From: Alphaproteobacteria bacterium
Lineage (GTDB): Bacteria; Pseudomonadota; Alphaproteobacteria; Micavibrionales; UBA2020
Length of the DNA stretch: 64,000 bases
Direction: 5' to 3'
Assembly (NCBI GenBank): GCA_041287865.1
Contig: JBGGMV010000008.1
Span: forward strand, 70,297-134,296
Position numbers and translations under genes: made by a program. Positions 5,425-34,102 of the stretch are shown piece after piece; position 1 is the first letter of the stretch, and every line of letters begins with the position of its first letter. The notes beneath the pieces are model-generated. The model ran no database searches and was not told the origin of the DNA. It saw nothing but the letters and a program-made list of their open reading frames with translations.

Positions 5425-5940
5425 TCAGTTGCCGCGATTGCCGCGTTTGATGGGCCCATGGTTGCGGTCCCATTTGTTTTCGGTGCGGTCGCGCACGTTT
5501 TCGCGGCGGTCGCGGACGTCTTCGGCGGCGTCGCGCTTGTCTTCGCGCGCATCACGGCGGTCTTCTGCCGTATCGCGCTTGTCTTCGTTTTCGTCATGCT
5601 TGTCTTCGGCCGCATCGCGTTTATCTTCGAGGCGATCACGCCAGCCGCCTTCATGGGCTGCGTCGCGTTCGTCTTCTTTCGCATCGCGTTCATCTTCGCG
5701 GGCGTCGCGTTCGTCCTCGTTCGCGTCGCGCTTGTCTTCCTGCGCGTCATGCTTGTCTTCCAGCCTGTCGCGGCGGTTTTCCCAGCGGTCGCGCATATTC
5801 TCGCGGTGGTCGCGGATGTCTTCGAGACGGTCGGCGCGCGGGCGGCCGGCATTGCTCTCCGATGCGCCCTCCTCGGCATAGGCGGCGGTGGAGGCGACCA
5901 GCAGAACGGCGGCCATCACGGCCAGAAACTTGATGCGCAT
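5425..5940 (-). CDS. secreted hyper-charged heptad-repeat protein
   Basis: The signal peptide MRIKFLAVMAAVLLVASTAAYA is followed by about 17 heptads x-x-E-[DN]-x-[RH]-D (AQEDKRD ANEDERD AREDERD AKEDERD...). This frame was chosen over three overlapping ORFs because it alone has a signal peptide and a regular repeat. Confidence 0.6.
   Translation of the reverse strand: MRIKFLAVMAAVLLVASTAAYAEEGASESNAGRPRADRLEDIRDHRENMRDRWENRRDRLEDKHDAQEDKRDANEDERDAREDERDAKEDERDAAHEGGWRDRLEDKRDAAEDKHDENEDKRDTAEDRRDAREDKRDAAEDVRDRRENVRDRTENKWDRNHGPIKRGNRGN
5476..5838 (-). repeat. about 17 tandem 21-nt coding repeats
   Basis: 21-nt periodicity is visible in the DNA (gcgtcgcgcttgtcttc variants), matching the heptads of the 5425-5940 CDS. 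Confidence 0.7.
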
Positions 5941-7163: not shown

Positions 7164-7174
7164 TTATGTAGTAT
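7164..7174 (+). promoter_or_regulatory. TTATGTAGTAT box (variant of TTATGTATAAT) upstream of SLT paralog 1
   Basis: An AT-rich -10-like element 21 nt upstream of the GTG start at 7195. TTGAGC lies 17 nt upstream of TATGTA. Confidence 0.4.
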
Positions 7175-7194
7175 GTCATCCAAGGATTTATAGA

Positions 7195-8964
7195 GTGAAC
7201 AAGCGCAAGGGCCTAAAAGGCCTTTTCAACCGGCTGGCAGGTTCTGCTGCGATGGCCGCTGCCCTTTTTACCGGCGTGCCCGCGAGCGCGCAGGACGCTC
7301 AGCCGACTCCGGCGGATATTCCCGCGCAGGTGCAGCTGCTGCAAAGCTGCCCCGCCTTCCCCGATTTCAAGCGCCCCGAAGCACCGATGCTGCGCCAGAC
7401 GGCCAAGGACATGCCCGTCGACGAAGAATTGAAATCGCGCCAGAGATTGCTCCGCCAGCTGGGCATCAATCCCGGCGCAACCGATGGCCTGAACGGCGGC
7501 ACGACGCGCGCGGCGCAGCGCGAATTCATGATGTTCTATGCGCCGCTCTATAACGGCGACACCACGAAGGTCACGCTCGACGATGCCGATGCGCTGCAAT
7601 TAAAGAAATACGCCGACCAGAATACAACCGATATCGCCGCGACCGGCCTGTCGACGGGCGAGGCCGCGGCCCTGCGCCTTGCGTCTTTGCGCAGCGGCGT
7701 CAGCTTCGCCACGCTGTCGTCGACGGCGAAAAAGGGCGGCACGCTACCGGGCGTTTCCTCCACCGGCGCTGCGGCGGACGATTTGTTCAAGTTCGATAAC
7801 GCCAGCTGGCTCTACATGGTCAAGAATTACGGCGATGATTACGGGCTGGGGTTCTATGCGAAACATATCACGCTGGAAACGCGGGATGATGGCAAGTCTG
7901 TGCCTGTGGTCGATAATCCCTTTATCCACCGCCAGCTGCTGAACCTGAAGAATTACCCGCGCATTTCCGCGCTGATGGCGGGGGAATACCTGAAGCACAG
8001 GCCCGACCTGACGAACGTCGCCAACCCGAAAGTGCCGCTGACCGATGCGCGCGTGAAGCAGCAGCAAACCGATCTGCTGGCGCTGGGTTTCGATATCGGC
8101 TCCACCGATGCCGACGGCATCAAGGGCGGCTTCACCACGCTGGCGATGAAAGAATTCCAGCTTTTGCATGGCGAAGGCCAGCCCACCGGCAGCCTGAGCG
8201 ATATCGAGTCTGCGAAACTGGCATCGGCCGCAGACGCCGCGCGCGTCGAGGGCCGCAAATATAATGTGCCGAACGCGGCCAGCGGATCGATCCGCATGGC
8301 GGCCGACGCGGTGAAAGATTCAAAGGGCCCCGAATTCCCCTACCTGATGGAGCTGGCATCAGCGGAAAGTTCTTTCCGCGTCAGCGCAAAGGCCAGCACA
8401 TCGACCGCCACCGGGCTTTACCAGTTTATCGAGAGCACCTGGGCATACATGTTATTACACCATGGCGAGAAACACGGCCTTGGCGATTTTTCGAACGAGG
8501 TTGAAACCTATTCTGATGCGCTGGGCCGCCCGCAGGCGCGTTTCAAAAACCCGGTGATCCGCGCCGAAGCGCTCGAGATGCGCAAGAACCCGCAGCTCTC
8601 GGCCCTGTTCAGCGCCGATTTCCAGTCCGACAACAAGGCGAAGGAAAGCTGCTATGTGACGGGAGATCTCTCGCGCACCGATCTTTACCTCGCGCATTTC
8701 CTCGGCGCGCATGACGCCGTGTACTTTATAAATCAAATGAAGGCCAACCCCGAGAAATCGGCGGTGGAAACCTTCCCCGAGGCCGCCGCCGCTAACGCCA
8801 GCATCTTCTACGCCCGCGACGGCAAGACGGTGCGCGACCGCAGCCTTGAAGAAGTCTATGAAGTGCTGGGCCGCAAGTTCAACCGCGGGCTTTACGACGA
8901 GGTGGCGACCGTGCCGCTGGCCAAGCCCACCCTGCCCAAGCCGCCGGGACAGTCTCCCTCCTGA
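7195..8964 (+). CDS. SLT-like/peptidoglycan-binding protein, paralog 1 (Sec signal)
   Basis: GTG start with AGGA 8 nt upstream. Signal peptide ...AAMAAALFTGVPASAQDA. Two PG_binding_1-like segments (LGINPGATDGLNGGTTRAAQREF and LGFDIGSTDADGIKGGFTTLAMKEFQ). SLT catalytic motif MELASAESSFRVSAKASTSTATGLYQFIESTW. Confidence 0.8.
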   Translation: MNKRKGLKGLFNRLAGSAAMAAALFTGVPASAQDAQPTPADIPAQVQLLQSCPAFPDFKRPEAPMLRQTAKDMPVDEELKSRQRLLRQLGINPGATDGLNGGTTRAAQREFMMFYAPLYNGDTTKVTLDDADALQLKKYADQNTTDIAATGLSTGEAAALRLASLRSGVSFATLSSTAKKGGTLPGVSSTGAAADDLFKFDNASWLYMVKNYGDDYGLGFYAKHITLETRDDGKSVPVVDNPFIHRQLLNLKNYPRISALMAGEYLKHRPDLTNVANPKVPLTDARVKQQQTDLLALGFDIGSTDADGIKGGFTTLAMKEFQLLHGEGQPTGSLSDIESAKLASAADAARVEGRKYNVPNAASGSIRMAADAVKDSKGPEFPYLMELASAESSFRVSAKASTSTATGLYQFIESTWAYMLLHHGEKHGLGDFSNEVETYSDALGRPQARFKNPVIRAEALEMRKNPQLSALFSADFQSDNKAKESCYVTGDLSRTDLYLAHFLGAHDAVYFINQMKANPEKSAVETFPEAAAANASIFYARDGKTVRDRSLEEVYEVLGRKFNRGLYDEVATVPLAKPTLPKPPGQSPS

Positions 8965-9053
8965 AAAACCTGCGAAAATCCCGATAACGCGGTTTTTCAT
9001 TGACTTGGGATCATGAAATATCCTATTTTCATAATCGCTGAAAAAGGGTTTAC

Positions 9054-9791
9054 ATGAACGCCGTATCCGCCATCAGAGAACATATCGATATCGTTTTTAA
9101 TGCCCTCGTCGGCATTCCGAACGATCCGGACAGCCTGATGCATTTTGCGATCCGCCGGGGCGATGCCTGGCGCTTTAAAAAAGCGCTGGCGCGCGGCGCG
9201 AACCCCGAGGCGCGCGACGGCGCCGGCTGCACCGCGCTCGAAAGCGCCGTGCAATACAAATGCCCCGAGATGGTGAAGGAACTGCTGGCCCGGAAGGCGA
9301 ACCACAAGGGCGGGCGCTACACCAGTATCGGCAGTTTCTTCGGCGCCAACCTGACCGTGCCTCTTGTCGATGCGGCGATGGCCGGCAGCATGGAAATGGT
9401 GAAGCTTCTTGTCGAGGCCGGTGCCGATATCAACGCGCGGGGGCACGATGGATGGACGGCTCTCCATCTGGCTGCGGTCAATTCAAACCGGGAATTAGCC
9501 GGCTATCTTCTCGCGCAGGGGGCTGACCCGAATGTGCGCGACGACCAAGGCAATATTCCCCTCTACTATGTGTTTCAGGGCAAATGCAATCGGGAGGTGG
9601 CTTTGGCGCTGCTTGACGCGAAGGCCTATGTGCCCGACGAGAGCACGCCCGTCCTCTGCACGCGGGCAAAAGCATGCGGCTGGCACGATATCGCCGAGGC
9701 CATCGACCACCGCAACGTCACCGGCGTGGAACAGGGCCTAACCACAAAGCGCAACATTCCGGTCCGCAAGCCTTTCGTTTTCAAACATTGA
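9054..9791 (+). CDS. ankyrin-repeat protein
   Basis: Repeats include GCTALESAVQYKCPEMVKELLARKAN and GWTALHLAAVNSNRELAGYLLAQGADPNVRDDQGNIPLYY. No signal peptide; it ends ...IPVRKPFVFKH. Confidence 0.85.
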   Translation: MNAVSAIREHIDIVFNALVGIPNDPDSLMHFAIRRGDAWRFKKALARGANPEARDGAGCTALESAVQYKCPEMVKELLARKANHKGGRYTSIGSFFGANLTVPLVDAAMAGSMEMVKLLVEAGADINARGHDGWTALHLAAVNSNRELAGYLLAQGADPNVRDDQGNIPLYYVFQGKCNREVALALLDAKAYVPDESTPVLCTRAKACGWHDIAEAIDHRNVTGVEQGLTTKRNIPVRKPFVFKH

Positions 9792-9860
9792 GGCCTCTTC
9801 CCGCCCCGGGAGGATAAAAACGGCCAAATCTTAACTTTTCATTAACACTTCCCTGCTACC

Positions 9861-9871
9861 TTATGTATAAT
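9861..9871 (+). promoter_or_regulatory. TTATGTATAAT box (-10 TATAAT) upstream of SLT paralog 2
   Basis: TTAACA (9842-9847), an 18-nt spacer, then TATAAT (9866-9871). Confidence 0.5.
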
Positions 9872-9933
9872 AGAAGGATTCGACCCTTGGGGTGTGGGCC
9901 TCTTGGGAAATAACGATAAATTCTGGGTGTGTA

Positions 9934-11673
9934 ATGCCGGATAAAGAAAAGCCGAAGGAGCCAAGTGCTTTCCGCCGTGCTTTCAACGTGGTGGCTCTGG
10001 CGGTCGGCCTTGCGGTCGCCCCCGTTGTTGTCGCGCCCACCGTCGTGCGCGTACTGACCGACGACAATAAACCCAAGCCCCGCGCAACCGAACAGTTCAA
10101 CCGCAATGCCCCCTCGGCTGCCGCCGCGCAAACGCCCGCCGCCCAGCCGCCGCGCGTCAAAGTCGAGGTCAAGCCCGTGCCCGCATCGGCCTTTACGCCG
10201 ATGTTCGCAACAGACGACGAGAAAGAACGCAATATCTTCTACAAGCAGACCGCGCGCGCCATCCGTGAATTCCGCGCGCTGCGCGACCAGTCGCCGTCCA
10301 GCGGACCGCTGACACGCGAAGAACGCACGCTGATACAGGAAACGACCAAGGCCGCCCGCGCGGACGCCAAGAAATACAAATTACCGCTGGAGGTCGCGGC
10401 CTCGCTCCGCTTCGCCTCTTCACAGGTGGGCGTGGATCATGACACCTATATGCAGCGCCTGACGCAATTCGCCGGCAACCTGACCAATGCCGACCCTGCA
10501 GGCCTGCTGAAGGGCGATGTGTTCAAGTTCAACGTGCCCAACTGGCTGTCCATGATCAAGCAATTCGGCCCCAGCCACGGGCTCGATTACTTCGCCGATA
10601 AAATCCGCCTTGATACCTCGACCGGCAAGCCGCTGGTGGACGTATCGGACCCCGCCGTGCTGCGGCAAATTGTGAACATGCGACACAACCCGCGCATCAA
10701 CGCGCTGATGGGCGCGGAGCTGATGAAGCATCCGGAGCTGAAGGCCGCCGAATACCGCGGCACCAACTGGCAGTATGACGCCAATGTCGCGCGCGAGCAG
10801 CAGGCCTTGCAGACGCTGGGCTTCGATCTCGGCATCCGCGGCAACGACGGCATCAAGGGCCCGCTGATGGGCGCCGCCATGTCGGAATTCGCGCTGATGA
10901 GCCAGCCGCTGTTCGGCGCCGGCAAGAACATCGACCAGATGCTGCAGGAATCTGCGGCGCAGGCCGTTGTTGACAGCCAGAAATACACCAATAAATGGAA
11001 CAACGTCACCCCCGCTAACGCCTTCGCCGTGCGCCATGCCGCGAAGGTTGTGGGCGTCGATTACGGCTACATGATGGAACTGGCCTCGGCCGAAAGCGGC
11101 TTTGCCGCCGGCGCGCAGGCGGAAACCTCGTCTGCAAAGGGGCTCTTCCAGTTTACCGACGACAGCTGGATGACCATGATGTACCTGCACGGCGCGAAAT
11201 ACGGCTTCGCCGACATCGCGAAGAACATCGACGTGACGAAAAACCGCGACGGCATCATCACCTCGGCCCGCATCAACGACCCCTTGATCTCGCACTACGC
11301 GCTCGACCTGCGCGCCGACCCGCGCGTCAACGCGCTGATGGGCGCGGAATTCGCAAAAGAGAACAAGATGCTGCTGGAAGCGGCCATGCCCAAGCGGCAG
11401 GTGAACCGCACCGACCAGTACCTTGCGCATTTCCTGGGCTCGGGCTCGGCGGTCGACTTCCTGACCAAGATGAAGAAAAACCCTGAGGCGGCAGCCGACA
11501 GCGCCTTCCCCGCCGCCGCAGGCTCGAACAAGCCGGTCTTCTACAAGCCCGACGGCACGGCGCGCACGCTGAAGGAAGTTTACGAGGTCTTCGACAAAAA
11601 ATTCGACCTTGGCGTTTACGATCCGCCGAAGCCCCCGCCGCCCAAGGCGCCCGTGAAGCCGAAGAAACGCTGA
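9934..11673 (+). CDS. SLT-like/peptidoglycan-binding protein, paralog 2 (N-terminal membrane anchor)
   Basis: ATG 9934 (MPDKEKPKEPSAFRR...) parallels the N-terminus of paralog 4. TM segment FNVVALAVGLAVAPVVVAPTVV. Degenerate N module (LEVAASLRFAS...FKFNVPNWL...NPRINALMGAE), then a PG-binding segment (LGFDLGIRGNDGIKGPLMGAAMSEF), then a C module with MELASAESGF...SSAKGLFQF. Confidence 0.8.
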   Translation: MPDKEKPKEPSAFRRAFNVVALAVGLAVAPVVVAPTVVRVLTDDNKPKPRATEQFNRNAPSAAAAQTPAAQPPRVKVEVKPVPASAFTPMFATDDEKERNIFYKQTARAIREFRALRDQSPSSGPLTREERTLIQETTKAARADAKKYKLPLEVAASLRFASSQVGVDHDTYMQRLTQFAGNLTNADPAGLLKGDVFKFNVPNWLSMIKQFGPSHGLDYFADKIRLDTSTGKPLVDVSDPAVLRQIVNMRHNPRINALMGAELMKHPELKAAEYRGTNWQYDANVAREQQALQTLGFDLGIRGNDGIKGPLMGAAMSEFALMSQPLFGAGKNIDQMLQESAAQAVVDSQKYTNKWNNVTPANAFAVRHAAKVVGVDYGYMMELASAESGFAAGAQAETSSAKGLFQFTDDSWMTMMYLHGAKYGFADIAKNIDVTKNRDGIITSARINDPLISHYALDLRADPRVNALMGAEFAKENKMLLEAAMPKRQVNRTDQYLAHFLGSGSAVDFLTKMKKNPEAAADSAFPAAAGSNKPVFYKPDGTARTLKEVYEVFDKKFDLGVYDPPKPPPPKAPVKPKKR

Positions 11674-11827
11674 GGCGTTAACCGGCTACCCCCGAGTCTT
11701 GTTTCCCAATGTTCAAGAATCGGCGTTTTTTGGCCGTGGGCGGGGTTTATCAATGCTTTGATTTGTAATGATATTGCCCTCCCCCACCCCCCTTTATTAA
11801 GTGTTCTTTAATAGTTTACAGGTACAA

Positions 11828-11838
11828 TTATGTATAAT
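11828..11838 (+). promoter_or_regulatory. TTATGTATAAT box inside the palindrome AATTAT-GT-ATAATT, upstream of SLT paralog 3
   Basis: AATTATGTATAATT lies at 11826-11839 in an AT-rich island about 70 nt upstream of ATG 11910. Confidence 0.45.
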
Positions 11839-11909
11839 TATTAATTCTTTCCTAAGATCGTTAACGGCCTCTCCCGGAACGGTTTTAGTCAAAGCAGGGT
11901 GGTGTGCAT

Positions 11910-14027
11910 ATGACAGGTGGCGGTAAAGGCAAGCGTCCAGCAGCATCGAGGTTCGCAGGCGACCGGATGACCGAAGACGCCGCAGAGGCGATGGTCGTCG
12001 CGGAAACCGTAACGCCGGATAAAAAAATCACCGCCGCGTTCAATACCAATATGGGCAAATGGGACCAGAGCCATAACCTCTTCTATCGCCTGAATACTTT
12101 CAGCGACGCCGAAATCAGGAACGCCGACCTGCAGATGATCGCCGAGTTCCGCCAGATGCGCGGACAGGGCCTGTCGCGCCAGAGACTGACGCCCGAGGAA
12201 GTCGCCTTCCTGCGCGAAATCAAGGCGGACGCAGCTGACGAAGTGAAAAAACATCCCGGCCTGACGCAGGACGTCGCCGAGACTCTGGTGTTCGCCGCCC
12301 GCACCGTGGGGCTGGACCGCGCCGAATATGTGCAGAAACTGATCGACACCGACGGCAATATTCTGGGCCTGCCCGCCGACCAGGTGACCAAGGCCGGCCC
12401 GTCGAAATTCGACGTCAACAGCTGGCTCAAGGTCATCAAGCAGCATGGCGCCGAACACGGCCTCGGCTATTTCGCCGACAAGATCGACCTGAAGGAAGAC
12501 GGCGGCCCCGCCAACCTCGTCGTTAACGTCGAAGATCCGCGCGTGCTGCGCCAGATTGTCGCGCTGCGTAACAACCCCCGCCTCTCCGCCATCATGGGCG
12601 CCCATGCGATCGAGGACGGCAAGGAACGCGAAGCCGCCGGCGGCGTGCAGCCCAAAGTCTGGTATCGCGGCGTCAATTATAATAACGATCCCGAAGTGCT
12701 GGAAAACCAGCGCAACCTGCAGGCGCTGGGCTTTGACATCGGCCCCCGCGCCGACGGCGTGAACGGCCCGCTCACCCTGGCCTCCACCCGCGAATTCATG
12801 CAGATGTACAACATCACCGACAAGCAGCAGGCCAATGACAAGCTGGAGCAGGTGGTCAACGAAATGAAGGCCGTCGCCGGCGAATACGATTTCAACGGCA
12901 AGAAAGTGCCGCCGAAGCCGCCCGCCCGCCAGACGAAAACCCGCGCCGGCGCGCAGTTCAACGGCGCCGCCGCCGTGCCCGCCGTGCCGGAAACCTCGGT
13001 CGAGACCACGAATACCGTCAAGCTGTCGGTGAAGGACGCCTTCGCGCTGAAACTGGCCTCCGAAAAATCGAACATGCCCTTCGACACGCTGCTCCGCATC
13101 GTCATCGCCGAGCGCGCCTTCGAGCAGCAAGCAGGCAAGACCAGCCGCTCGCCCGGCCTGTTCCACATCAACGACGGTAACTGGCTGATGACCGTCGCGC
13201 AGCATGGCGAAAAATACGGCCTGGGCGACATCGTGAAGCAAATGAGCGTAACGAAAGACCCCGCCACCGGCAAGGTGACGCAGGTGATCGTCAACGACCC
13301 GATCATCCGCCAGCACATTCTTGATTTGCGCAAAGACCCCCGCGTTTCGGCCCTGATGGGCGCGGAGCGGGCGAAGGAATACCCGATCCAGCTCGACATC
13401 GCCGAAAGCTACCTCGGCATGAACGAGCAAAAGGACAATGCGGCGCTGCGCGGCTTCTTCAAAAAGGGCGGCATCACGCACGATCCGGCCTCGACCGCCT
13501 GGTGCGGCGTGTTCATCAACTCGGTGATGGACAGCCTTGGCCTGCCCAAGACGAACGGCGTCGCGGGCGCGCGCTCCTTCTCGAACGAGGAATACGGCAC
13601 CGCCGTGATTACCGAAGCCAACATGGCGAAGATAAAGACCCAGCCGACCGCGAAAAAGAACCAGCAACTCGCGGAACTGGCCGCCAATATCAAGCCGGGC
13701 GACATCGTGATGTTCCGCCGCAAGACCGAAGACGACCCGACCGGATCGTGGTCGGGCCACGTCGCCTTCATCAAGCGCGTCTATCAGGAGGGCGGCACCT
13801 GGAAGATCGACTATCTGGGCGGCAACCAGGGCGGCGGCGCCGGCCTTGGCGGCGGCTCGGCGCAGGGTGGCGCAGTTACCGTCGCCGAAGGCGTGTCGCT
13901 TGAAAACGTGCTGACCATCCGCCGTCCGCCTCCGATCCCGGGCCTGACCGAAGCGCTCAGGCTCGATGCGGCCTCCACCACGCCGCGCGCGACGACCCAA
14001 CCGGCGGCACGTCCCCAGACTCCCTGA
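11910..14027 (+). CDS. SLT-like/peptidoglycan-binding protein, paralog 3, fused to a C-terminal NlpC/P60-like (TIGR02594-like) domain
   Basis: Same two-module architecture (FKFDVNSWL...NPRLSAIMGA; LGFDIGPRADGVNGPLTLASTREF; SRSPGLFHINDGNWL...DPRVSALMGAE). It adds a C-terminal ...STAWCGVFINSVM...GDIVMFRR...WSGHVAFIK...YLGGNQGGG segment with Cys/His and the LGGNQ signature. No signal peptide or TM. ATG 11910 is preferred over GTG 11904 on RBS spacing. Confidence 0.75.
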   Translation: MTGGGKGKRPAASRFAGDRMTEDAAEAMVVAETVTPDKKITAAFNTNMGKWDQSHNLFYRLNTFSDAEIRNADLQMIAEFRQMRGQGLSRQRLTPEEVAFLREIKADAADEVKKHPGLTQDVAETLVFAARTVGLDRAEYVQKLIDTDGNILGLPADQVTKAGPSKFDVNSWLKVIKQHGAEHGLGYFADKIDLKEDGGPANLVVNVEDPRVLRQIVALRNNPRLSAIMGAHAIEDGKEREAAGGVQPKVWYRGVNYNNDPEVLENQRNLQALGFDIGPRADGVNGPLTLASTREFMQMYNITDKQQANDKLEQVVNEMKAVAGEYDFNGKKVPPKPPARQTKTRAGAQFNGAAAVPAVPETSVETTNTVKLSVKDAFALKLASEKSNMPFDTLLRIVIAERAFEQQAGKTSRSPGLFHINDGNWLMTVAQHGEKYGLGDIVKQMSVTKDPATGKVTQVIVNDPIIRQHILDLRKDPRVSALMGAERAKEYPIQLDIAESYLGMNEQKDNAALRGFFKKGGITHDPASTAWCGVFINSVMDSLGLPKTNGVAGARSFSNEEYGTAVITEANMAKIKTQPTAKKNQQLAELAANIKPGDIVMFRRKTEDDPTGSWSGHVAFIKRVYQEGGTWKIDYLGGNQGGGAGLGGGSAQGGAVTVAEGVSLENVLTIRRPPPIPGLTEALRLDAASTTPRATTQPAARPQTP

Positions 14028-14047
14028 TTTAAAGGATATAACGCGAC

Positions 14048-15670
14048 ATGACTGGCGAACCGGACGATAAAAAACCATCCAAGTTCCGCGGTCACGGCCA
14101 TGAACCCGCGCCGGGCGCGAAGCTGCAGACCAAGCCGCCGCCTGCGCCCAACGCCTCAAAATTCGCGCCCGCTTTCCAGACGGATGAGGAAAAGAAGAAC
14201 AACATCTTCTATTCCCAAACCAAGCAGGCGATCCGCGAATTCCGCGCCATGGCCGGCAACGAGAACGCACGCGGGCCGCTGAGCCGCGAAGAACAGAAAT
14301 ACATCCGCGAGCTGCTGAACGAAGCCAAGGGCGACGTGAAGAAATACAAGATTCCGCTCGAGGTTGCGGCCTCGCTGCGCTTCGCCTCGAAGGAAGCACG
14401 CGTCGACCACACCGAATTCATGCAGCGCATGATCGAAACCGACGGCAATATCTCGCGCGCCGACCCCGGTGGCATCATGAAAACCGGGCCGTTCAAATTC
14501 AACGTGCCCACCTGGCTTTACATGATGAAGACCCACGGTCCCGAACACGGGCTGGATTATTTCGCCGGCAAGATCAGCATCGAGCACAAGAACGGTTATG
14601 TGACCGCCGAAGTGAAGGACCCCGCCGTCCTGCGCGAGATTATATCCCTGCGCGACAACCCGCGCGTCTCGGCCATGATGGGCGCGGAATACCTGAAGCA
14701 CCAGAGCGAGCTGCCGGTGATCACCTATCCCGGCGCGACGCTGGTATCCGACCCCAAGACCAAGACGGAGCAGGAAAATCTGATGACACTGGGCTTCGAC
14801 CTCGGCATTCGCGGCGCGGACGGCATTCCCGGCCCGCTGACGCAGGCCGCGCGCACCGAATTCCAGCAGATGAACGGGCCGCTATTGACGGCGGGCGCCG
14901 CGCCCAAGCCGCTCGACCAGATGATCGCCGACGCCGCCACGCAGGCGAAAGCGGATTCGGACTCTTTCTCTACCCCCAAGCGCAAGATATCGCCCGCAGA
15001 TACCTTTGGCATCCGCCACGCTGCGAAAGTGACGGGGCAGGATTTCGGCTTCATGATGGAGCTGGCGCAGGCGGAAAGCGGATTTAAAACCGAGGTCAAG
15101 GCCAGCACCAGTTCGGCCACCGGCCTTTACCAGTTTATAGACAGCACATGGCTGATCGAGCTGCACCGCCACGGCGAGAAATACGGCCTGGGCGATATCG
15201 TCAAGCAGATCGAGGTCAAGAAGAACAAGGCGGGCGACATCATCGACGCCGATATCCGCGACCCGATGCTGAAGAAATACGCGCTCGACCTGCGCGCCGA
15301 CCCGCGCATCAACTCGCTGATGGGCGCGGAGTTCGTGAAGGAGAACAAGGAAATCCTTGCCGCCGCGCTGCCCAAGAAAGATCTGAACCGCACCGATCAA
15401 TACCTCGCGCACTTCATGGGCTCGGGCGGCGCGGTCGACTTCCTCTCGGCGATGAAGAAAACGCCGGATAGCTCGGCCGCCGATAAATTCCCGAACGAGG
15501 CAAAATCAAACCCCGGCGTGTTCCAGAAGCCGGACGGCACAGATCGCTCGCTGAAAGAGGTCTACGACTTCTTCATGAAGAAATTCTACACGCAGGATTT
15601 CGACAACGCGAAAGCGCCGAAAGACCCAAAACCGGCCGTAACGCCCGTCAAGCCCAAGGCAAAACACTAA
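14048..15670 (+). CDS. SLT-like/peptidoglycan-binding protein, paralog 4 (no signal peptide)
   Basis: Closest to paralog 2 (FAPAFQTDEEKKNNIFY..., LEVAASLRFASKEARVDH, MELAQAESGFKTEVKASTSSATGLYQFIDSTW). The N-terminus MTGEPDDKKPSKFRGHGHEP is hydrophilic. Confidence 0.8.
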   Translation: MTGEPDDKKPSKFRGHGHEPAPGAKLQTKPPPAPNASKFAPAFQTDEEKKNNIFYSQTKQAIREFRAMAGNENARGPLSREEQKYIRELLNEAKGDVKKYKIPLEVAASLRFASKEARVDHTEFMQRMIETDGNISRADPGGIMKTGPFKFNVPTWLYMMKTHGPEHGLDYFAGKISIEHKNGYVTAEVKDPAVLREIISLRDNPRVSAMMGAEYLKHQSELPVITYPGATLVSDPKTKTEQENLMTLGFDLGIRGADGIPGPLTQAARTEFQQMNGPLLTAGAAPKPLDQMIADAATQAKADSDSFSTPKRKISPADTFGIRHAAKVTGQDFGFMMELAQAESGFKTEVKASTSSATGLYQFIDSTWLIELHRHGEKYGLGDIVKQIEVKKNKAGDIIDADIRDPMLKKYALDLRADPRINSLMGAEFVKENKEILAAALPKKDLNRTDQYLAHFMGSGGAVDFLSAMKKTPDSSAADKFPNEAKSNPGVFQKPDGTDRSLKEVYDFFMKKFYTQDFDNAKAPKDPKPAVTPVKPKAKH

Positions 15671-18542: not shown

Positions 18543-18626
18543 GATGGCTTTCTCCAAAAAATATCTCCGTAAAATAGCGATTCCATTAGCTTTACCGCAA
18601 GGTTTTCCTGCCTCGGCAGCTAATGT

Positions 18627-18636
18627 TTGACATAAT
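18627..18636 (+). promoter_or_regulatory. TTGACATAAY promoter box
   Basis: TTGACATAAT, a 17-nt spacer, then TACAAC (18650-18655). It lies upstream of ATG 18677. Confidence 0.55.
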
Positions 18637-18676
18637 AACCCGTAACTGCTACAACCTACGGTCAAAGGAGACCGCC

Positions 18677-19231
18677 ATGACCAGCCTGCGCGAGAGATTT
18701 GCCGATGCCGAAAAACAGCAAAGCCTGCCCAAGAAGGCCTATAACCAGCTGCATGGCCTGAGCGGCGAACTCGCCGCCTTTGCCAGCGGCCTGCCCAAGG
18801 CGATCGAGGACCTGGTGATCAGGGCCGAAGCCGGGCAACCCACATATACCCTCACCTGCTCCCCTTCGCTGCGCGTGGTGTTCAAGACCGGCTATTACGC
18901 GCCGTACTTACTGGATGACAACGGCCGCCGCGAATTTCCCGGCCACGACGAAATGCAGGATCTGCAGGGCTTCCGCAAGCTGCTGGACACCTGCGCCAAT
19001 CCGGCGGTCGATGTCTGCGTGCGCATGGCTTTTTCAAGGCCCAGCATCCACCGCAGTGAACTTGCACTGACCGTCGACATCAACCTGAAAGAAGCCTTTG
19101 CCGCCAGCACCTTCTCTACGCGCGGTGCAGGCGGGCAGGAGGAGCGCCACGCAATCGGCGCGGATTACATCGCCGCGCAGCAGAAGCCGTTCAAGGCGCC
19201 TGCCGTGCTCTCGCTGCAGAACAAGACCTGA
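18677..19231 (+). CDS. hypothetical protein
   Basis: 184 aa from ATG 18677, with AAGGAG at 18665-18670. No signal peptide and no recognisable domain. It ends ...QQKPFKAPAVLSLQNKT, a weak relative of the tail motif. Confidence 0.6.
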   Translation: MTSLRERFADAEKQQSLPKKAYNQLHGLSGELAAFASGLPKAIEDLVIRAEAGQPTYTLTCSPSLRVVFKTGYYAPYLLDDNGRREFPGHDEMQDLQGFRKLLDTCANPAVDVCVRMAFSRPSIHRSELALTVDINLKEAFAASTFSTRGAGGQEERHAIGADYIAAQQKPFKAPAVLSLQNKT

Positions 19232-19251
19232 AATCTTCAGATATTTGAAAA

Positions 19252-19482
19252 TTAGCGCGCAGGCGCTGCGTTCGTCTGCTCGTCACGCACGCGGGGCAGC
19301 ACATACTGCTCGCCGGCCAGCGTGGCGCGGATATTGGCCGAGACGTATTCGGCGAAGGCGCGTTGTTCGGCGGTGGTCTTCAGGGTGCGCGATACTTTCA
19401 CCACAGGCGCTTCGGCCAGCGCGGGCGCGGCCAGCAGTGCGATCAGCGCAGTGATAACGATGGATGAATAAAGCGTTTTCAT
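19252..19482 (-). CDS. small exported hypothetical protein
   Basis: 76 aa from ATG 19482. Signal peptide MKTLYSSIVITALIALLAAPALAEA. It has its own TTGACATAAT promoter box. Confidence 0.55.
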   Translation of the reverse strand: MKTLYSSIVITALIALLAAPALAEAPVVKVSRTLKTTAEQRAFAEYVSANIRATLAGEQYVLPRVRDEQTNAAPAR

Positions 19483-19541
19483 GTTCAGGATACTACCCCT
19501 CTTGATGCCCCAACGGCAAGGCATACTAGGCCCGATGCAGC

Positions 19542-19551
19542 ATTATGTCAA
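19542..19551 (-). promoter_or_regulatory. TTGACATAAY promoter box
   Basis: On the minus strand: TTGACATAAT, a 17-nt spacer, then TAGTAT (19528-19523). It lies upstream of the 19252-19482 gene. Confidence 0.6.
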
Positions 19552-19581
19552 GACAAGGTTTAGACCTGATATATAAGGATT

Positions 19582-20016
19582 TTATTGGCCGGGCGGCTTG
19601 AATTTGATCGGTTTCATCGCCTTTGTGTCAGCTTGCGTGGGCGCGCCGTCCCTGCACCAGCTGTCGAGCGCGTCCTGCCGCGCCTTCAGCGCCTTCGCCA
19701 GTTGCGACTTCATCGAGCTGGCGGCGACGGAAAAGGCGAGGCGATGATCGCCCGCTTCCTTCGACAGGCGCTGCGCAACCTCCTGCGACAGGATGAAATC
19801 ACGCTCCACCTTGTGCGTGCGGCCCTGCGCATCGAACTTCCAGCCGCTGACGTTCACAATTGCCACGGCGGTTTTCGCATCCGCATCGATTTCGATGTCC
19901 TTGAGCAGAATGCGCTGCTCGGGCGGCTGGCTGCCGCCGCCGCGCATAACGGGGCCATTGCCGCGCTGGTCGAGCACGGCGAGGACTTCTTCGACGGTGG
20001 AAAGTTTTGCGGCCAT
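19582..20016 (-). CDS. hypothetical protein with C-terminal tail motif
   Basis: 144 aa, no signal peptide; it ends ...DTKAMKPIKFKPPGQ. Its start lies 2 nt after the stop of the upstream 384-aa gene, so they probably form an operon. Confidence 0.65.
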   Translation of the reverse strand: MAAKLSTVEEVLAVLDQRGNGPVMRGGGSQPPEQRILLKDIEIDADAKTAVAIVNVSGWKFDAQGRTHKVERDFILSQEVAQRLSKEAGDHRLAFSVAASSMKSQLAKALKARQDALDSWCRDGAPTQADTKAMKPIKFKPPGQ

Positions 20017-20018
20017 GG

Positions 20019-21173
20019 TTACGGCGCCTTCGGGCCGGAAGGCTTGCGGATCGCCTTGTTTTCGGGCGCGTTCATCACGGCATCGACGATGGTGACGGCT
20101 TTCTCCATGCGCGTGCGCAGGCCTTCGTGCTGTTCAAGGCCCGATGCCGCCGCGACCTTGTGCTTGAGTTTATCAAGACGCTCCAGCGTTTCTTCGGCGG
20201 CCAGCGGATCAAAGGATTTATCCTTTTGCCATTCAAGATAACCCTTAAGCTGGCTTTCAAGGAAATGCACCAGCGCGGCATGGCTGATGGCGAGTGCTTC
20301 GGGCGTTTGGGGCGTGGTGTCATGCGGCTTGGATGATCCAAGATCGGCCCAGGGGCTGGTCTGCTCCCACAACTCGCCGATGCGCGGCGAGAAATCGGAG
20401 GGTTTCTTGTGGCCGGGGCGGATCAGGCTGTACTGGTTCAGCAGCGCGGCGGAAATCACTTCGGGGTCAGTTGTGGCGCCCGTATCGACCAGCACGCGCG
20501 CAATACCGGCATTGGTCAGCGTATAGCCGCCCAGCGGATCGCCATCCAGCGCCCAGTTTTTCATTTCGGTGTAGACTTTGCGCACCGTCGGGTGATCGGG
20601 CAGGCCGGTCGCCTCGAACGACAATGCCTTCGCGCGTTCCGCGACGATATCGGCCAGCGCCGCCTGCGCGGCGGCAAGTTTCGTTTCGGCAACGGCCAGC
20701 ATGTCTTTTTCGGTCGCACTGCCGGCGATTGCTTTCAATGCGCGTTCGTTCGCGTCCAGCACCTGCTGCACGTTGCGGTATTCGATGATATGCGCGATCT
20801 TGCCGCTGGAAATTTCAGCCTGCACAGAGTCGAGACCGATAATGGACTGCGCCAGCAGCACCTGCTGGTCGGCGGTGTTTTTGAATTTCGGATTGTCGAT
20901 GTCGATGGCATCGAGGCGTTGCAGGCATTTCGCTACTTCGGGGCTCACGGATTTTTCGAACTGTTTAGAATCCAGCGGGATAACCATGCCGTTCAGCAGC
21001 ACGCTCGCCGCCACGGCAACGGGATCGGGATCTTTCGCATGGGCCGTAATCACCTCGCCCGCCTTCACCGCTTCGCGCGCCCAATCGTCTCCGTCCTTGA
21101 AAAACGTGCGCATGACCGCATAGGCCTTTTCGACCAGCGGATGGCGCAACAGCTTGGTGTCCTCGAATTTCAT
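20019..21173 (-). CDS. hypothetical protein (two degenerate HD/SpoT-N-like segments by eye)
   Basis: 384 aa. Segments AGEVITAHAKDPDPVAVAASVLLNG and AGIARVLVDTGATTDPEVISAALLNQ resemble the VA-IL-x-D-x-AALLHD helix of HD hydrolases but lack the His-Asp. This is a weak by-eye call. The opposite-strand ORFs are junk-like. Confidence 0.6.
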   Translation of the reverse strand: MKFEDTKLLRHPLVEKAYAVMRTFFKDGDDWAREAVKAGEVITAHAKDPDPVAVAASVLLNGMVIPLDSKQFEKSVSPEVAKCLQRLDAIDIDNPKFKNTADQQVLLAQSIIGLDSVQAEISSGKIAHIIEYRNVQQVLDANERALKAIAGSATEKDMLAVAETKLAAAQAALADIVAERAKALSFEATGLPDHPTVRKVYTEMKNWALDGDPLGGYTLTNAGIARVLVDTGATTDPEVISAALLNQYSLIRPGHKKPSDFSPRIGELWEQTSPWADLGSSKPHDTTPQTPEALAISHAALVHFLESQLKGYLEWQKDKSFDPLAAEETLERLDKLKHKVAAASGLEQHEGLRTRMEKAVTIVDAVMNAPENKAIRKPSGPKAP

Positions 21174-23694: not shown

Positions 23695-24558
23695 ATGGCT
23701 CCTACCCCCATCACCATCCGCCCCGACGGCCAGAGCTGGCCCACGCCACCCGCCGGCGCGCCGCCGGAAAGTGAAATGAAGGCCTTTCTGAACGACTGCG
23801 AGAAAGGCAACGAGGCCGAAGTTGTCGCCTACCTGAAGCGCTGGCCCGAATTCCCCGAAGTGAAAATGTACAATATTGAATCCACCAGCCTGATCCATGC
23901 GGCGCGGTACGGGCACGACAAGATCGTCAAAATCCTGCTGGAGGCCGGCTGCCCCGTCGGCACGCAGGATGCGGATTTGAATACGGCGCTGTTTGCAGCG
24001 CTCACCGAAGGCCGGTTCAGCACCGTGAAACTGCTGCTGGACGAGGGCGCGGATCTTTCGGTTACCCCTCGCTTCGGCAAGACGGCGGTGGCAACGGCGG
24101 TCTATTCGGGCAATGTCGAGCTCGTCAATTTCCTGCTGGAAAAGGGTGAGAAAGCCGACGGTCGCGACAGTTACGGCGGCAACGCCCTTAGCGAGCTGCA
24201 ATGGTGCAGGAACGAGGATTTCAATTTCGCCGAACTGCTGGTGAAGCATGGCGCCGACATGAATGTTGTCAGCCAGGGCGGCCATACCGCGCTCTCCCAA
24301 TGCGTGCAGCAGGGCCGCACCAAATTCGTCCGTCACCTGCTGGATCTCGGCGTCGAGCTGCGCGGGCCCTTCCTGCCCCACAACGATGACATCAAGCAGA
24401 TGCTCGCCGACGAACCCTATCGCCGCGAGAGTGTTCGCGTCGCCGCAATCGAGGCCGCCGCCGCCGAAATCCGCGCACGCGAAAAGGCCATCGAAAACGA
24501 AGTGAACGCGGGCCTTCCCTCCTCCGTCAAAGTGCGTCCCTTCCGCCTGAAAATGTAA
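23695..24558 (+). CDS. ankyrin-repeat protein
   Basis: Repeats include TSLIHAARYGHDKIVKILLEAGCPVGTQDADLNTALFAAL, GKTAVATAVYSGNVELVNFLLEKGEKADGRD and GHTALSQCVQQGRTKFVRHLLDLG. It ends ...SVKVRPFRLKM. Confidence 0.85.
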   Translation: MAPTPITIRPDGQSWPTPPAGAPPESEMKAFLNDCEKGNEAEVVAYLKRWPEFPEVKMYNIESTSLIHAARYGHDKIVKILLEAGCPVGTQDADLNTALFAALTEGRFSTVKLLLDEGADLSVTPRFGKTAVATAVYSGNVELVNFLLEKGEKADGRDSYGGNALSELQWCRNEDFNFAELLVKHGADMNVVSQGGHTALSQCVQQGRTKFVRHLLDLGVELRGPFLPHNDDIKQMLADEPYRRESVRVAAIEAAAAEIRAREKAIENEVNAGLPSSVKVRPFRLKM

Positions 24559-32291: not shown

Positions 32292-32370
32292 ATTTTTGTG
32301 ATCCCCTGCATCTTTACCTCAGTTGACTTTAAATTAAGAGACACTAGTGTCAATCGCACAAGCGACCGCC

Positions 32371-32538
32371 ACGCGGGAGAGACTGGCTCATTTGCCGGCG
32401 CCGAAGGAGCAACCACCCCGGAAACTCTCAGGCAAAAGGACCGCGCGGCGACTTCGTTACTCTGGAAAGCGGCTATAGCCGCGCCAAAGGAGCAAGCGGT
32501 TGAAATGCCGCGGAATCTCTAAGGCAAAGAAGACAGAG
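32371..32538 (+). promoter_or_regulatory. tandem glycine riboswitch (two aptamers)
   Basis: Aptamer 1 (32371-32445): GGGAGAG...CGCCGAAGGAGCAAC...CTCTCAGGCAAAAGGACC. Aptamer 2 (32460-32538): CTCTGGAAAG...CGCCAAAGGAGCAAG...TCTCTAAGGCAAAGAAGACAGAG. Both match the conserved cores and lie directly upstream of gcvT. Confidence 0.85.
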
Positions 32539-32577
32539 CGGGGCAAGTTTCCGAACGACTATGAAAAGGAATTTGCC

Positions 32578-33708
32578 TTGGAACCAGCCCTGCAAAAAGA
32601 CGCCCCCCTCCTCAAAACGCCCCTCTGGGCGCTCCATACCGCCAAGGGCGGAAAAATGGTGCCCTTCGCCGGCTATGACATGCCGGTGCAGTACGATGGC
32701 CTCGGCGTCCTGAAAGAACACGTTCACACGCGCGAACACGCCGGCCTTTTCGATGTCTCGCACATGGGGCAGGCGATTTTGAGCAGCAGTTCAGGTGATC
32801 CCGCGATCGCGCTCGAAAAAATCGTGCCGGGCGACATTCGCGGGCTCGAAGTCGGCAAGATGCGCTACACCGTTCTGCTGAACGACAAGGGCGGCATCCT
32901 CGACGACCTGATGGTCACGCGCTGGGATGAAAAAACCCTGCTGGTGATCGTCAACGCCGCCTGCAAGGAAAAAGATTTCGCCTATATCAACAAAACCATC
33001 GGCGGCCAGACGAAACTGGAATACCTCGGCACCCGCGCGCTCGTCGCGCTGCAAGGGCCGAAAGCCGAACAGGTGGCCAGCATCTTCTTCCCCGATGTGC
33101 TGGGCATGAAATTCATGTCGGCCACAAAGACGACGTACAAAGGCCACGAGATTTTCCTGTCGCGTTCGGGCTATACGGGCGAAGACGGTTTCGAAATCTC
33201 GATCCCCGGCGGCTTCGCTGAAGCCTTCTGCAAGGAAATGCTGGAGGAACAAGAAGTCAAACTCATCGGCCTTGGCGCGCGCGATAGTTTGCGGCTCGAA
33301 GCCGGCCTTTGCCTTTACGGCCATGATATCGACGAAAACTCCACCCCCATCGATGCGAACCTGAAATGGGTTATCCCGAAACGCCGCCGCGAGGAAGCCA
33401 ATTTCCCCGGTGCCGAGAAAATTCTCAGCCAGCTGTCGGGCGGCACATATATATTGCGCGTCGGCATCAAGCCCGAAGGAGCAGCCCCCATCCGCGAAAA
33501 AACCGAGCTGTTTGTCGGCGACAAAAAGGTCGGCGTGGTGACATCCGGCGGCTTCGGCCCCACCTTCGGCGGCCCTGTCGCCATGGGTTACGTCGATGCA
33601 AACTTTGCCAAGACCGGCACGAAGCTCAACGCCATGCTGCGCGGCACCCCGCGCCCCTGCGAAGTGGCTGCGCTGCCGTTTGTGAAACACAATTACAAAA
33701 AAGATTAA
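32578..33708 (+). CDS. gcvT: glycine cleavage system aminomethyltransferase T
   Basis: LLKTPLWALHTAKGGKMVPFAGYDMPVQY is the typical GcvT N-terminus. I propose the in-frame TTG at 32578, with AAGGA 7 nt upstream. The track ATG at 32500 lies inside riboswitch aptamer 2. Confidence 0.85.
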   Translation: MEPALQKDAPLLKTPLWALHTAKGGKMVPFAGYDMPVQYDGLGVLKEHVHTREHAGLFDVSHMGQAILSSSSGDPAIALEKIVPGDIRGLEVGKMRYTVLLNDKGGILDDLMVTRWDEKTLLVIVNAACKEKDFAYINKTIGGQTKLEYLGTRALVALQGPKAEQVASIFFPDVLGMKFMSATKTTYKGHEIFLSRSGYTGEDGFEISIPGGFAEAFCKEMLEEQEVKLIGLGARDSLRLEAGLCLYGHDIDENSTPIDANLKWVIPKRRREEANFPGAEKILSQLSGGTYILRVGIKPEGAAPIREKTELFVGDKKVGVVTSGGFGPTFGGPVAMGYVDANFAKTGTKLNAMLRGTPRPCEVAALPFVKHNYKKD

Positions 33709-33723
33709 ACGAGGGAAAAACAC

Positions 33724-34098
33724 ATGACGAAAATTCTGTTCAGCGAAGACCATGAATACATCAAGATCGAAAACGGCGTCGGCACGGTCGGCATTTCCGA
33801 CTTCGCGCAAAAGGCGCTGGGCGACGTGGTTTACGTCGAATTGCCGAAGGTTGGCGCGAAGCTGACCAAGGGCGGGCAGGCCGGCGTTGTCGAAAGCGTC
33901 AAATCAGCCTCCGAACTTTATTCCCCCGTCACCGGCGAAGTGGTCGAGATCAACGGCGCGCTGACCGGCGACCCCGCGCTGGTGAACAGCGACCCGCTGG
34001 GCAAGGCCTGGTTCTTCAAGGTGAAAATTGCCAACGAAAACGAACTCACCGGCCTGAAAGACGAGAAAGCGTACAATGACTTCATTAAAGGACTTTAA
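33724..34098 (+). CDS. gcvH: glycine cleavage system H protein
   Basis: 124 aa with the lipoyl-lysine motif [18 protein letters not shown]. Confidence 0.95.
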
Positions 34099-34102
34099 GC
34101 GC

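Follow-up and report, generated by a model that had tools for sequence, protein, structure and literature searches.

The question raised by this locus is why a bacterium keeps four related, presumptive wall-degrading enzymes in a row, two of them without an export signal, and which cell wall they would attack. The genes, here named P1 to P4, lie on the same strand at positions 7195–15670 of the window, which is the whole 64,000-nucleotide (nt) stretch analysed, from a metagenome-assembled 'Alphaproteobacteria bacterium'. Together with an ankyrin-repeat gene between P1 and P2 they correspond to ACAH80_01200 to ACAH80_01220, P2 being identical to the NCBI protein ACAH80_01210, and every one of them bears the name 'hypothetical protein'. 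We consider it likely that P1 to P4 are paralogs within a lineage-specific family of murein hydrolases, and that this family arose when a unit of the type found in the phiKZ endolysin gp144 was duplicated. The duplication would have been head-to-tail, the first copy having been reduced to a non-catalytic half-domain and the second remaining complete. The paralogs would differ mainly in their destination, and P3 also in its chemistry.

The four same-strand paralogous genes and the ankyrin gene among them, which had been described in an earlier note on this DNA, are real, as judged from the open reading frames (ORFs), from the alignment of P1 to P4 end to end, and from a Pfam Ank match with an E-value (E) of 5e-24. 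The invariant motifs of the aligned proteins fall into two separate blocks, and the identity to P1 is 36% for P2, 25% for P3 and 34% for P4. P4 starts 20 nt 3' of the stop codon of P3. The ORF of P2 is opened by a GTG at 9892, and its start is called at the ATG at 9934 by NCBI and ENA alike. The parts of the four proteins are as follows; boundaries in amino acids (aa) come from domain mapping unless another basis is given, and functional terms are predictions.

7195–8964, + strand: P1, ORF of 589 aa
P1, aa 1–32: Sec-type signal peptide, 'PASA/QD' (hydropathy)
P1, aa ~76–122: first PG_binding_1 domain, full (NCBIfam match; Pfam 36 bits with two stretches)
P1, aa 151–267: dead N-lobe module
P1, aa 285–329: second PG_binding_1 domain
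P1, aa 357–564: intact gp144-type lytic transglycosylase (SLT 16.9 bits and domain mapping), then Pro-rich tail
9934–11673, + strand: P2, ORF of 579 aa, the ancestral-type copy
P2, aa 16–38: hydrophobic N-terminal segment of 23 residues, probably an uncleaved anchor (hydropathy 2.81)
P2, aa 84–148: remnant of a peptidoglycan (PG)-binding domain, and linker
P2, aa 149–265: dead N-lobe module
P2, aa 283–327: PG-binding domain
P2, aa 357–559: intact transglycosylase (SLT 18.6 bits and domain mapping), then Lys/Pro tail
11967–14027, + strand: P3, 686 aa from the conserved start at 11967; other starts at 11904 and 11910 (686–705 aa)
P3, aa 97–216: dead N-lobe module
P3, aa 242–285: PG-binding domain, then long linker
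P3, aa 352–479: second N-lobe, Glu kept ('AER'), without C-lobe
13398–13850, + strand: NlpC/P60-type (TIGR02594/CHAP-like) peptidase domain of P3, putative catalytic Cys in 'AWCGVF' and His in 'GHVAFI'
14048–15670, + strand: P4, ORF of 540 aa, without signal peptide
P4, aa 36–100: PG-binding remnant and linker
14348–14698, + strand (P4, aa 101–217): N-module, a dead truncated duplicate of the transglycosylase N-lobe, given as the example for all four paralogs
P4, aa 236–280: PG-binding domain, then linker helix
P4, aa 313–440 and 441–515: intact transglycosylase, N-lobe (Glu343-Ser344) and C-lobe (Tyr452, His455), then Lys/Pro tail

The catalytic unit and its truncated duplicate

From its sequence, the C-terminal half of P1, P2 and P4 is identified as a phiKZ gp144-type endolysin unit, consisting of a PG_binding_1 domain, a linker helix and a GH23 lytic transglycosylase. 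P4 matched gp144 (PDB 3bkh, 9xps) with E 3.4e-28 in phmmer, in two stretches that cover gp144 residues 95–153 and 161–251. The AlphaFold2 model of P4, calculated with 69 family sequences, has a predicted local distance difference test score (pLDDT) of 90.6 and a predicted template modelling score of 0.85. A Foldseek search of the PDB with this model placed 3bkh first (E 1.9e-10, 32% identity), followed by MltF, Slt, MltE, MltC and the phi6 lysin (probability 0.9–1.0). The model thus gives the enzyme part of P4 the alpha-helical two-lobe, lysozyme-like fold that the earlier note had presupposed, with the GH23 enzymes gp144, MltF and Slt at the head of the ranking. The transglycosylase signature read in the C-module was recovered in P4 also by Pfam SLT (PF01464), with 25.2 bits against a gathering cutoff of 21.3 bits, over profile positions 4–49 of 117 only. 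The peptidoglycan-binding segment between the modules was recognised in P1 (Pfam PG_binding_1, 36.4 bits, cutoff 23); the segments of P4 (22.4 bits) and P3 (15.7 bits) score below the cutoff, and that of P2 is not reported by Pfam, yet it can be aligned.

A tblastn search of 50,697 phage records (INPHARED) matched 180 records, mostly of phiKZ-like jumbo phages. All 180 matches start at aa 234–257 and span aa ~234–513 only, which comprises the binding domain and the enzyme. The transglycosylase also matches PHROG 3201 (E 3e-35), which comprises virion lysins of the gp181 type, and PHROG 4067 (E 2e-32), labelled 'transglycosylase'.

Mutagenesis of gp144 implicated Glu115 and Tyr197, and a second site formed by Glu178 and Tyr147 was proposed (PMC5406664). 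The equivalent of Glu115 is Glu343 of P4, which is present in 68 of the 69 aligned family proteins, and the equivalents of Tyr197 and His200 are Tyr452 and His455, each present in 65. Glu432, equivalent to Glu178, is present in 48 of the 69, and the position of Tyr147 is mostly occupied by His. The other catalytic-motif columns of the C-module are S344 (64/69), G359 (69/69) and Q362 (65/69). The first long helix of the C-module ends in Glu-Ser and is followed by GLxQ, and the C-lobe motifs ('YLAHF...FPxAAxxN..(I/V)FY') are common to P1, P2 and P4. Because the second unit keeps Glu-Ser, GLxQ, and the Tyr and His of 'YLAHF', it is predicted to cleave the bond between N-acetylmuramic acid (MurNAc) and N-acetylglucosamine (GlcNAc), forming 1,6-anhydro-MurNAc ends.

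The proteins of the family end in a Pro-rich tail, which is often rich in Lys or Arg (P1 to P4, for example window 15593–15667 and 11611–11670, and the 69 homologs). The median Pro content of the last 25 residues is 28%, compared with 6% overall, and 'PPKPPPPKAPVKPKKR' and 'PLPPPRPPGL' are examples. The tail may be a spacer or an envelope-binding element; either is possible.

The N-terminal half contains a truncated copy of the same unit. Since a whole-protein self-comparison by blastp found no internal repeat, excised modules and profiles were needed. The excised N-modules align with the C-modules collinearly at blastp E 1e-11 to 1e-19, and the profile–profile alignment of the N half with the C half by hhalign has a probability of 100% and E 2e-39 over 166 columns. 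The internal duplication of an SLT-like module proposed in the earlier note therefore stands; the second full module proposed with it does not, as the N-module consists of the N-lobe only. The duplicated stretch opens in the last helix of the PG-binding domain, includes the linker helix and ends at '...ALMGAE(F/Y)'; the C-lobe ('RTDQYLAHFLG...FPxAAxSN..VFY') has no counterpart in the N half. Because the aligned stretch begins within the last helix of the binding domain, the duplication unit comprised the binding domain, the linker and the enzyme. Both PG_binding_1 copies are kept in P1, and only a remnant precedes the N-module in P2 and P4.

In the column of the catalytic Glu, the N-module has Thr in P4 and P3, Phe in P2 and Lys in P1. 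Over the 69 homologs this Glu115-equivalent column holds Thr, Asn, Ser, Phe or Lys, and some P1-type proteins have a deletion here; His or Asn occupies the column equivalent to Glu178. In the N-module of P4, Thr131 takes the place of the Glu, and His that of Glu178. Lacking equivalents of gp144 Glu115 and Glu178 as well as the C-lobe that bears Tyr197, the N-module is, to judge by these residues, catalytically inactive. The earlier note had come to the same conclusion on weaker grounds: it had paired 'AAS' of the N-module with 'AES' of the C-module, which is about 20 residues out of register, 'EVAASLRFAS' aligning with the first helix of the C-module, 'DTFGIRHAAK'.

The N copy shows no decay; its conservation comes close to that of the catalytic part. 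Its column entropy is 1.60 bits, compared with 1.44 bits for the catalytic N-lobe and 1.57 bits for the binding domain, and 18 of its 117 columns are conserved at ≥90%. Modelled alone, the N region has a confident fold (pLDDT 90.6). The N-module is absent from the 50,697 INPHARED records (tblastn) and was not found in IMG/VR. The dead copy is most likely a non-catalytic partner, providing either a surface that binds or positions the glycan strand, or a regulatory surface packed on the active domain.

The single architecture that had been attributed to all four proteins applies to P1, P2 and P4; in P3, the C-lobe is replaced by a TIGR02594/CHAP-like peptidase domain. P3 continues after '...ALMGAERAKEY' with this peptidase-like domain, and its second N-lobe, in which the Glu is kept, lacks the equivalents of the Tyr and His. 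The domain matches PHROG 1259, 'baseplate hub subunit and tail lysozyme', at E 1.2e-13, and a sequence search did not find a solved homolog of it. The putative Cys and His are conserved in P3 orthologs, as judged by eye, the counterparts being 'PWCAAF'/'GHVAFV' in P0057 and P0058 and 'YWCAVF'/'GHVAIV' in P0065. P3 is probably mainly a peptidase, which would probably cut peptide stems while the two glycan-enzyme remnants hold the strand. An extra P3-type gene (L017, 9947–11632) was observed on another contig of the metagenome-assembled genome (MAG) FW300_bin.31, the carrier of the related array L004. This copy adjoins groEL and other housekeeping genes.

Export signals and history of the array

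The targeting of the paralogs differs, in agreement with the earlier note: P1 has a Sec-type signal ('...GVPASA/QD'), P2 has the 23-residue anchor, and P3 and P4 have no signal, a loss that is kept in their orthologs. By rules of thumb, the P2 segment is probably not cleaved, as Pro follows its only AxA-like site. No hydrophobic segment was found in P3 and P4, whose maximum 15-residue hydropathy is 0.55 and −0.40, respectively, compared with 1.4–2.8 by the same measure in signal-bearing relatives. The earlier note had named upstream in-frame starts that would add a signal peptide among the findings that could overturn its reading. Both ORFs open at the first start codon after an in-frame stop, and direct reading of the upstream DNA revealed neither an upstream in-frame start nor a hidden signal for P3 or P4. 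The DNA upstream of P3 is an AT-rich intergenic region. Sec-like N-termini are present in about 50 P2-type homologs and in the P1-type homologs, and the signal is missing in 7/7 P4-type and 4/4 P3-type proteins, other genomes included. The alignment of P4 with P2 begins right behind the P2 anchor.

Two observations concern the N-termini of the signal-bearing proteins. The motif 'C(P/A)AFP(D/G)F(K/R/Q)(R/K)P(E/L)' follows the signal peptide in P1-type proteins only (P1 aa ~50–62, window ~7345–7380); its Cys is too distant from the hydrophobic region for a lipobox. Many P2-type orthologs have 'RRAFN' or 'RRKFK' ahead of the hydrophobic core, resembling a twin-arginine signal. In other orthologs the twin arginine is missing, with a single Arg or Lys-Arg at this place, and no Tat-signal model was hit in the Pfam and NCBIfam scans, so that twin-arginine translocation (Tat) of the ancestral copy is not favoured and is a minor possibility. 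If the ancestral enzyme were exported by Tat, the leaderless paralogs could hitch-hike alongside it.

The array is flanked by LysR, Dps, AhpD, IleRS and TrpRS. The neighbourhood LysR-Dps-AhpD-X-IleRS, where X is the position of the array, is kept in 12 related loci, and this position is shared by genomes whose IleRS proteins are only ~60% identical. Seven of the loci, from six genomes, contain one signal-bearing P2-type gene (L002 and L012 are the same place in one MAG), L003 to L005 contain all of P1 to P4, and L006 contains at least three copies. The ancestral state was a single gene with a Sec signal between ahpD and ileS, from which local duplication produced four genes in one subclade. 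In a neighbour-joining (NJ) tree calculated without bootstrap, the P1-type and P3-type proteins are on deep branches, and the leaderless P4 clade is sister to the P2 clade of the same sublineage, inside the P2-type radiation. As the P4 clade stands beside P2 and P3 stands apart, the tree implies that the signal was lost independently in two paralog lineages.

The four-gene array is old, since orthologs in other genomes are 40–50% identical. The ratios of nonsynonymous to synonymous substitution rates (dN/dS), calculated against the closest relative (L003), are 0.18 for P1, 0.16 for P2, 0.18 for P3 and 0.066 for P4. Those of the neighbours are 0.15 for IleRS, 0.07 for LysR, 0.16 for Dps and 0.14 for AhpD. 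All four paralogs are under purifying selection, at rates like those of the neighbouring housekeeping genes, and the 'diversification under selection' suggested by the earlier note is contradicted by these ratios and by the age of the array. The gp144-type C half, the inclusion of the PG-binding domain in the duplication unit, the peptidase of P3 and the single Sec-signal ancestor go beyond what that note contained.

The two-module architecture is rare and lineage-specific. A profile search with the N region among 1.84 billion representative proteins gave 1,786 matches at E≤1e-3, most of those listed being single-module proteins, and the two-module pattern is found in only 19 representative clusters (50% identity) at E≤1e-30. 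The closest named relatives are MAGs labelled 'Micavibrio sp.' or 'Alphaproteobacteria bacterium'. The IleRS identity is 81–86% to the labelled MAGs and 57–58% to Azospirillum. The cultured Micavibrio aeruginosavorus was not among the family hits nor among the top 120 IleRS hits, which is not a rigorous test of absence.

The wall attacked and alternative explanations

Based on the domains and the export signals, a division of labour can be proposed. P1 would be a soluble enzyme with a signal peptide and two binding domains, and P2 is probably tethered to the inner membrane; both may act in the periplasm of the producer, or beyond it after type II secretion. Because the cytoplasm holds no substrate for them, P3 and P4 must exit independently of Sec. 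Most likely they reach a wall from outside, like their nearest phage relatives.

It is possible, if somewhat doubtful, that the four proteins are housekeeping autolysins, which remodel the sacculus of the producer during growth, septum splitting, or insertion of flagella or pili. P3 and P4 would then leave the cell by a minor leaderless route, through the flagellar export apparatus (as FlgJ) or by holin-assisted 'type 10' secretion (as TtsA and ChiX). The vertical inheritance of a single copy with a Sec signal at a fixed housekeeping position between ahpD and ileS fits this explanation, as do the evolutionary rates shared with the neighbouring genes and the short gp144-type homologs of free-living Azospirillum, which are leaderless too and lie among housekeeping genes. 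The absence of M. aeruginosavorus from the hits favours it as well, because it leaves a predatory lifestyle unproven. However, neither flagellar genes nor a holin gene lie in the vicinity of the array or of the short homologs, and among phage proteins both catalytic domains are closest to virion-borne lysins, which attack from outside. Furthermore, routine remodelling does not usually need as many as four paralogs, of which two are leaderless and one has gained a peptidase. A flagellar linkage was rejected, since the short homologs of Azospirillum and Thiogranum are outside flagellar clusters. It is quite unlikely that P3 and P4 serve as effectors carried by a contact-dependent injector, for instance a type VI secretion system (T6SS) or an extracellular contractile injection system, which would deliver them into the periplasm of a competitor or prey. 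Both are indeed leaderless, predicted to be murein hydrolases, and subject to strong purifying selection. A domain of the TIGR02594 type, as in P3, has been reported in VgrG4-linked T6SS effectors of Stenotrophomonas (PMC13055248), and the matches of P3 to the baseplate-hub/tail-lysozyme family (E 1e-13) and of the transglycosylase to the gp181-type virion lysin family (E 3e-35) point in the same direction. Nevertheless, genes for VgrG, PAAR, Hcp, an adaptor or a periplasmic immunity protein are found neither beside the array, in the window and in L003 to L006, nor beside the L017 copy, and for M. aeruginosavorus the genome paper describes secretion systems of types I and II and none of type III or IV, with type VI left unmentioned (PMC3189940).

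It is highly improbable that the array is the remnant of a prophage or of a gene-transfer-agent lysis module with holin-released endolysins, although the best solved homolog is the endolysin gp144, with the same order of binding and catalytic domains, and P3 and P4 are leaderless like canonical endolysins. Synteny and flanking genes largely refute a prophage origin, which was rejected: the position is kept across genomes with ~60% identical IleRS, and the genes flanking the array include none for phage structural proteins, holins, spanins or integrases. The ancestral form bore a Sec signal, the N-module is missing from the phage and viral collections searched, and the GC content of the array equals that of the rest of the window. 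A further explanation, which we regard as unlikely, is that the organism is a Micavibrio-like epibiotic predator and the array its predation toolkit. The leaderless P3 and P4 would cross a non-Sec, contact-dependent junction or injector into the prey periplasm and open the sacculus from outside, the dead N-lobe would grip the strand or serve in self-protection, and P1 and P2 would keep the ancestral function on the own wall. Micavibrio is an epibiotic predator (PMC3189940), and the mechanism by which epibiotic predators open the envelope of their prey is not known (PMC12428579). The link of the present organism to predation is attractive and comes entirely from the labels of metagenomes.

Several observations weigh against parts of the preferred reading, in which duplicated gp144-type enzymes differ in destination and the leaderless ones reach a wall from outside. 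The SLT scores of P1 (16.9 bits) and P2 (18.6 bits) are below the 21.3-bit cutoff, and P3 has no Pfam SLT hit. The match of P3 to TIGR02594 (E 1.5e-8, 35 bits) is below the NCBIfam cutoff of 70.55, and its match to CHAP (E 1.5e-4, 22.6 bits) is below the Pfam cutoff of 26. Structure searches with the N region alone ranked a gp144-type enzyme first in both PDB and BFVD, but were not significant (E 0.56 and 0.98), so the homology of the N region rests on sequence profiles; an N–C interface or a glycan groove is conjecture. The signals were called from hydropathy and the AxA rule, and the NJ tree is without bootstrap support. Genes for secretion, holins, VgrG/PAAR or immunity are absent from the surroundings of the array, in the window and in the related loci, and from those of the P3-type copy of L017.

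The family is a clean natural example of a murein hydrolase that carries its own dead, truncated duplicate; the constraint on this duplicate across deep divergence points to a non-catalytic role for a half-domain of the lysozyme fold. The related loci provide a dated, syntenic series leading from one Sec-exported gene to four, with two probable signal losses and the exchange of one catalytic lobe for a predicted peptidase. If the leaderless copies are exported, wall-degrading enzymes must have a way out other than Sec in this group, and its cultured namesake, Micavibrio, feeds while attached to prey. If the array does serve predation, it would be a cellular re-use of the tail-lysin strategy of giant phages. 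If the proteins are only housekeeping autolysins, the finding is an annotation upgrade for a family of 'hypothetical proteins'. Enzymes of the gp144 type have been engineered as antibacterials, a field in which a natural form that has additional binding modules and a Pro-rich cationic tail may prove useful.

Neighbouring features and comparison with known systems

Two further features lie between P1 and P2.

9054–9791, + strand: ankyrin-repeat gene, 245 aa, without signal peptide (Pfam Ank E 5e-24)
9842–9871, + strand: promoter-like candidate 5' of P2, TTAACA, 18-nt spacer, TATAAT; 11 of 12 consensus positions, from a consensus scan alone

The ankyrin gene was rejected as a part of the system and is probably outside it, being specific to this genome and missing at the same position in the closest relative, L003. 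In L004, an unrelated 762-aa membrane protein is encoded there instead. In an ENA assembly of the same population (L001, 2568–3245), the ankyrin gene call is 20 codons shorter (225 aa), with one residue differing from the window in 241, and the shorter call may represent a polymorphic premature stop. A second ankyrin-repeat gene of 287 aa is located 8 kb downstream of the array (23695–24558, + strand), giving two in the window. Both have NCBIfam similarity to Legionella Dot/Icm Ank effectors through the repeats only. As ankyrin genes are unusual in free-living bacteria, they may hint at an interaction with another cell.

The four ORFs between ileS and trpS (18623–21173; 202, 90, 144 and 384 aa, the 90-aa one with a signal peptide) are ENA gene calls without a Pfam family on record. 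All four have counterparts in L003. Of the other loci, L002/L012 have a short and weak match to the 90-aa ORF and L016 has the 384-aa ORF; no further counterparts were found. They were rejected as partners, since their occurrence does not track the array. Between lysR and dps, a 171-aa ORF with a signal peptide (5425–5940, − strand) consists mostly of charged heptad repeats, 'EDKRDAx', encoded by a 21-nt tandem array at 5474–5761 (Tandem Repeats Finder). A 1029-aa protein at 48971–52060 (+ strand), with eight Cadherin_3 repeats (E 8e-225), Cadherin_4 and Big_9, is probably a large surface adhesin. A glycine riboswitch (32364–32453, + strand; Rfam RF00504, 71.6 bits) is directly 5' of three + strand ORFs at 32500–36988, the last of which encodes the glycine-cleavage P protein (Pfam GDC-P); the first two are presumed to be gcvT and gcvH.

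The P1–P4 family shares with phiKZ gp144 the order of an N-terminal PG_binding_1 domain and an all-helical GH23 lytic transglycosylase. It differs in the second, dead and truncated copy of the unit in front, in a ~30-residue beta-hairpin insertion between the two matched stretches, in the Pro-rich basic tail, and in the predominance of His at the position of gp144 Tyr147, part of the proposed second site. The genes are also chromosomal core genes, ancestrally with a Sec signal, and do not stand in a phage lysis context.

The transglycosylase belongs to the same subfamily as the puncturing lysins of jumbo phages (phiKZ gp181 type, PHROG 3201, E 3e-35), and the P3 peptidase domain falls into the family of baseplate-hub and tail lysozymes (PHROG 1259, E 1e-13). 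These phage lysins are leaderless and reach the wall from outside (PMC5380687), and P3 and P4 are likewise leaderless. However, the phage enzymes are C-terminal domains of very large, tail-mounted structural proteins, whereas P1 to P4 are free proteins of 540–700 aa with no phage or tail genes near the array.

The family 1 lytic transglycosylases (SLT PF01464: Slt70, MltC, MltE and MltF) have the same GH23 fold, Glu-Ser and GLxQ. In the present proteins only the first ~45 residues fit the Pfam model, with P1 and P2 below the gathering score, and the accessory domains are different; Slt70, MltC, MltE and MltF contain no internal dead duplicate of the N-lobe. P3 resembles the TIGR02594 effectors of the T6SS in the type of its C-terminal domain, in its wall-binding modules and in its lack of a signal peptide, and differs from them in its score below the family cutoff and in having no adjacent VgrG, PAAR or immunity gene.

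The dLytM factors EnvC and NlpD are degenerate catalytic domains that partner murein hydrolases, as separate proteins that activate amidases. The N-module resembles them in having lost the catalytic residues and conserved the fold, presumably for binding or regulation. In contrast to the dLytM factors, the dead domain of the P1–P4 family is a half-domain and is fused in cis to its active twin.

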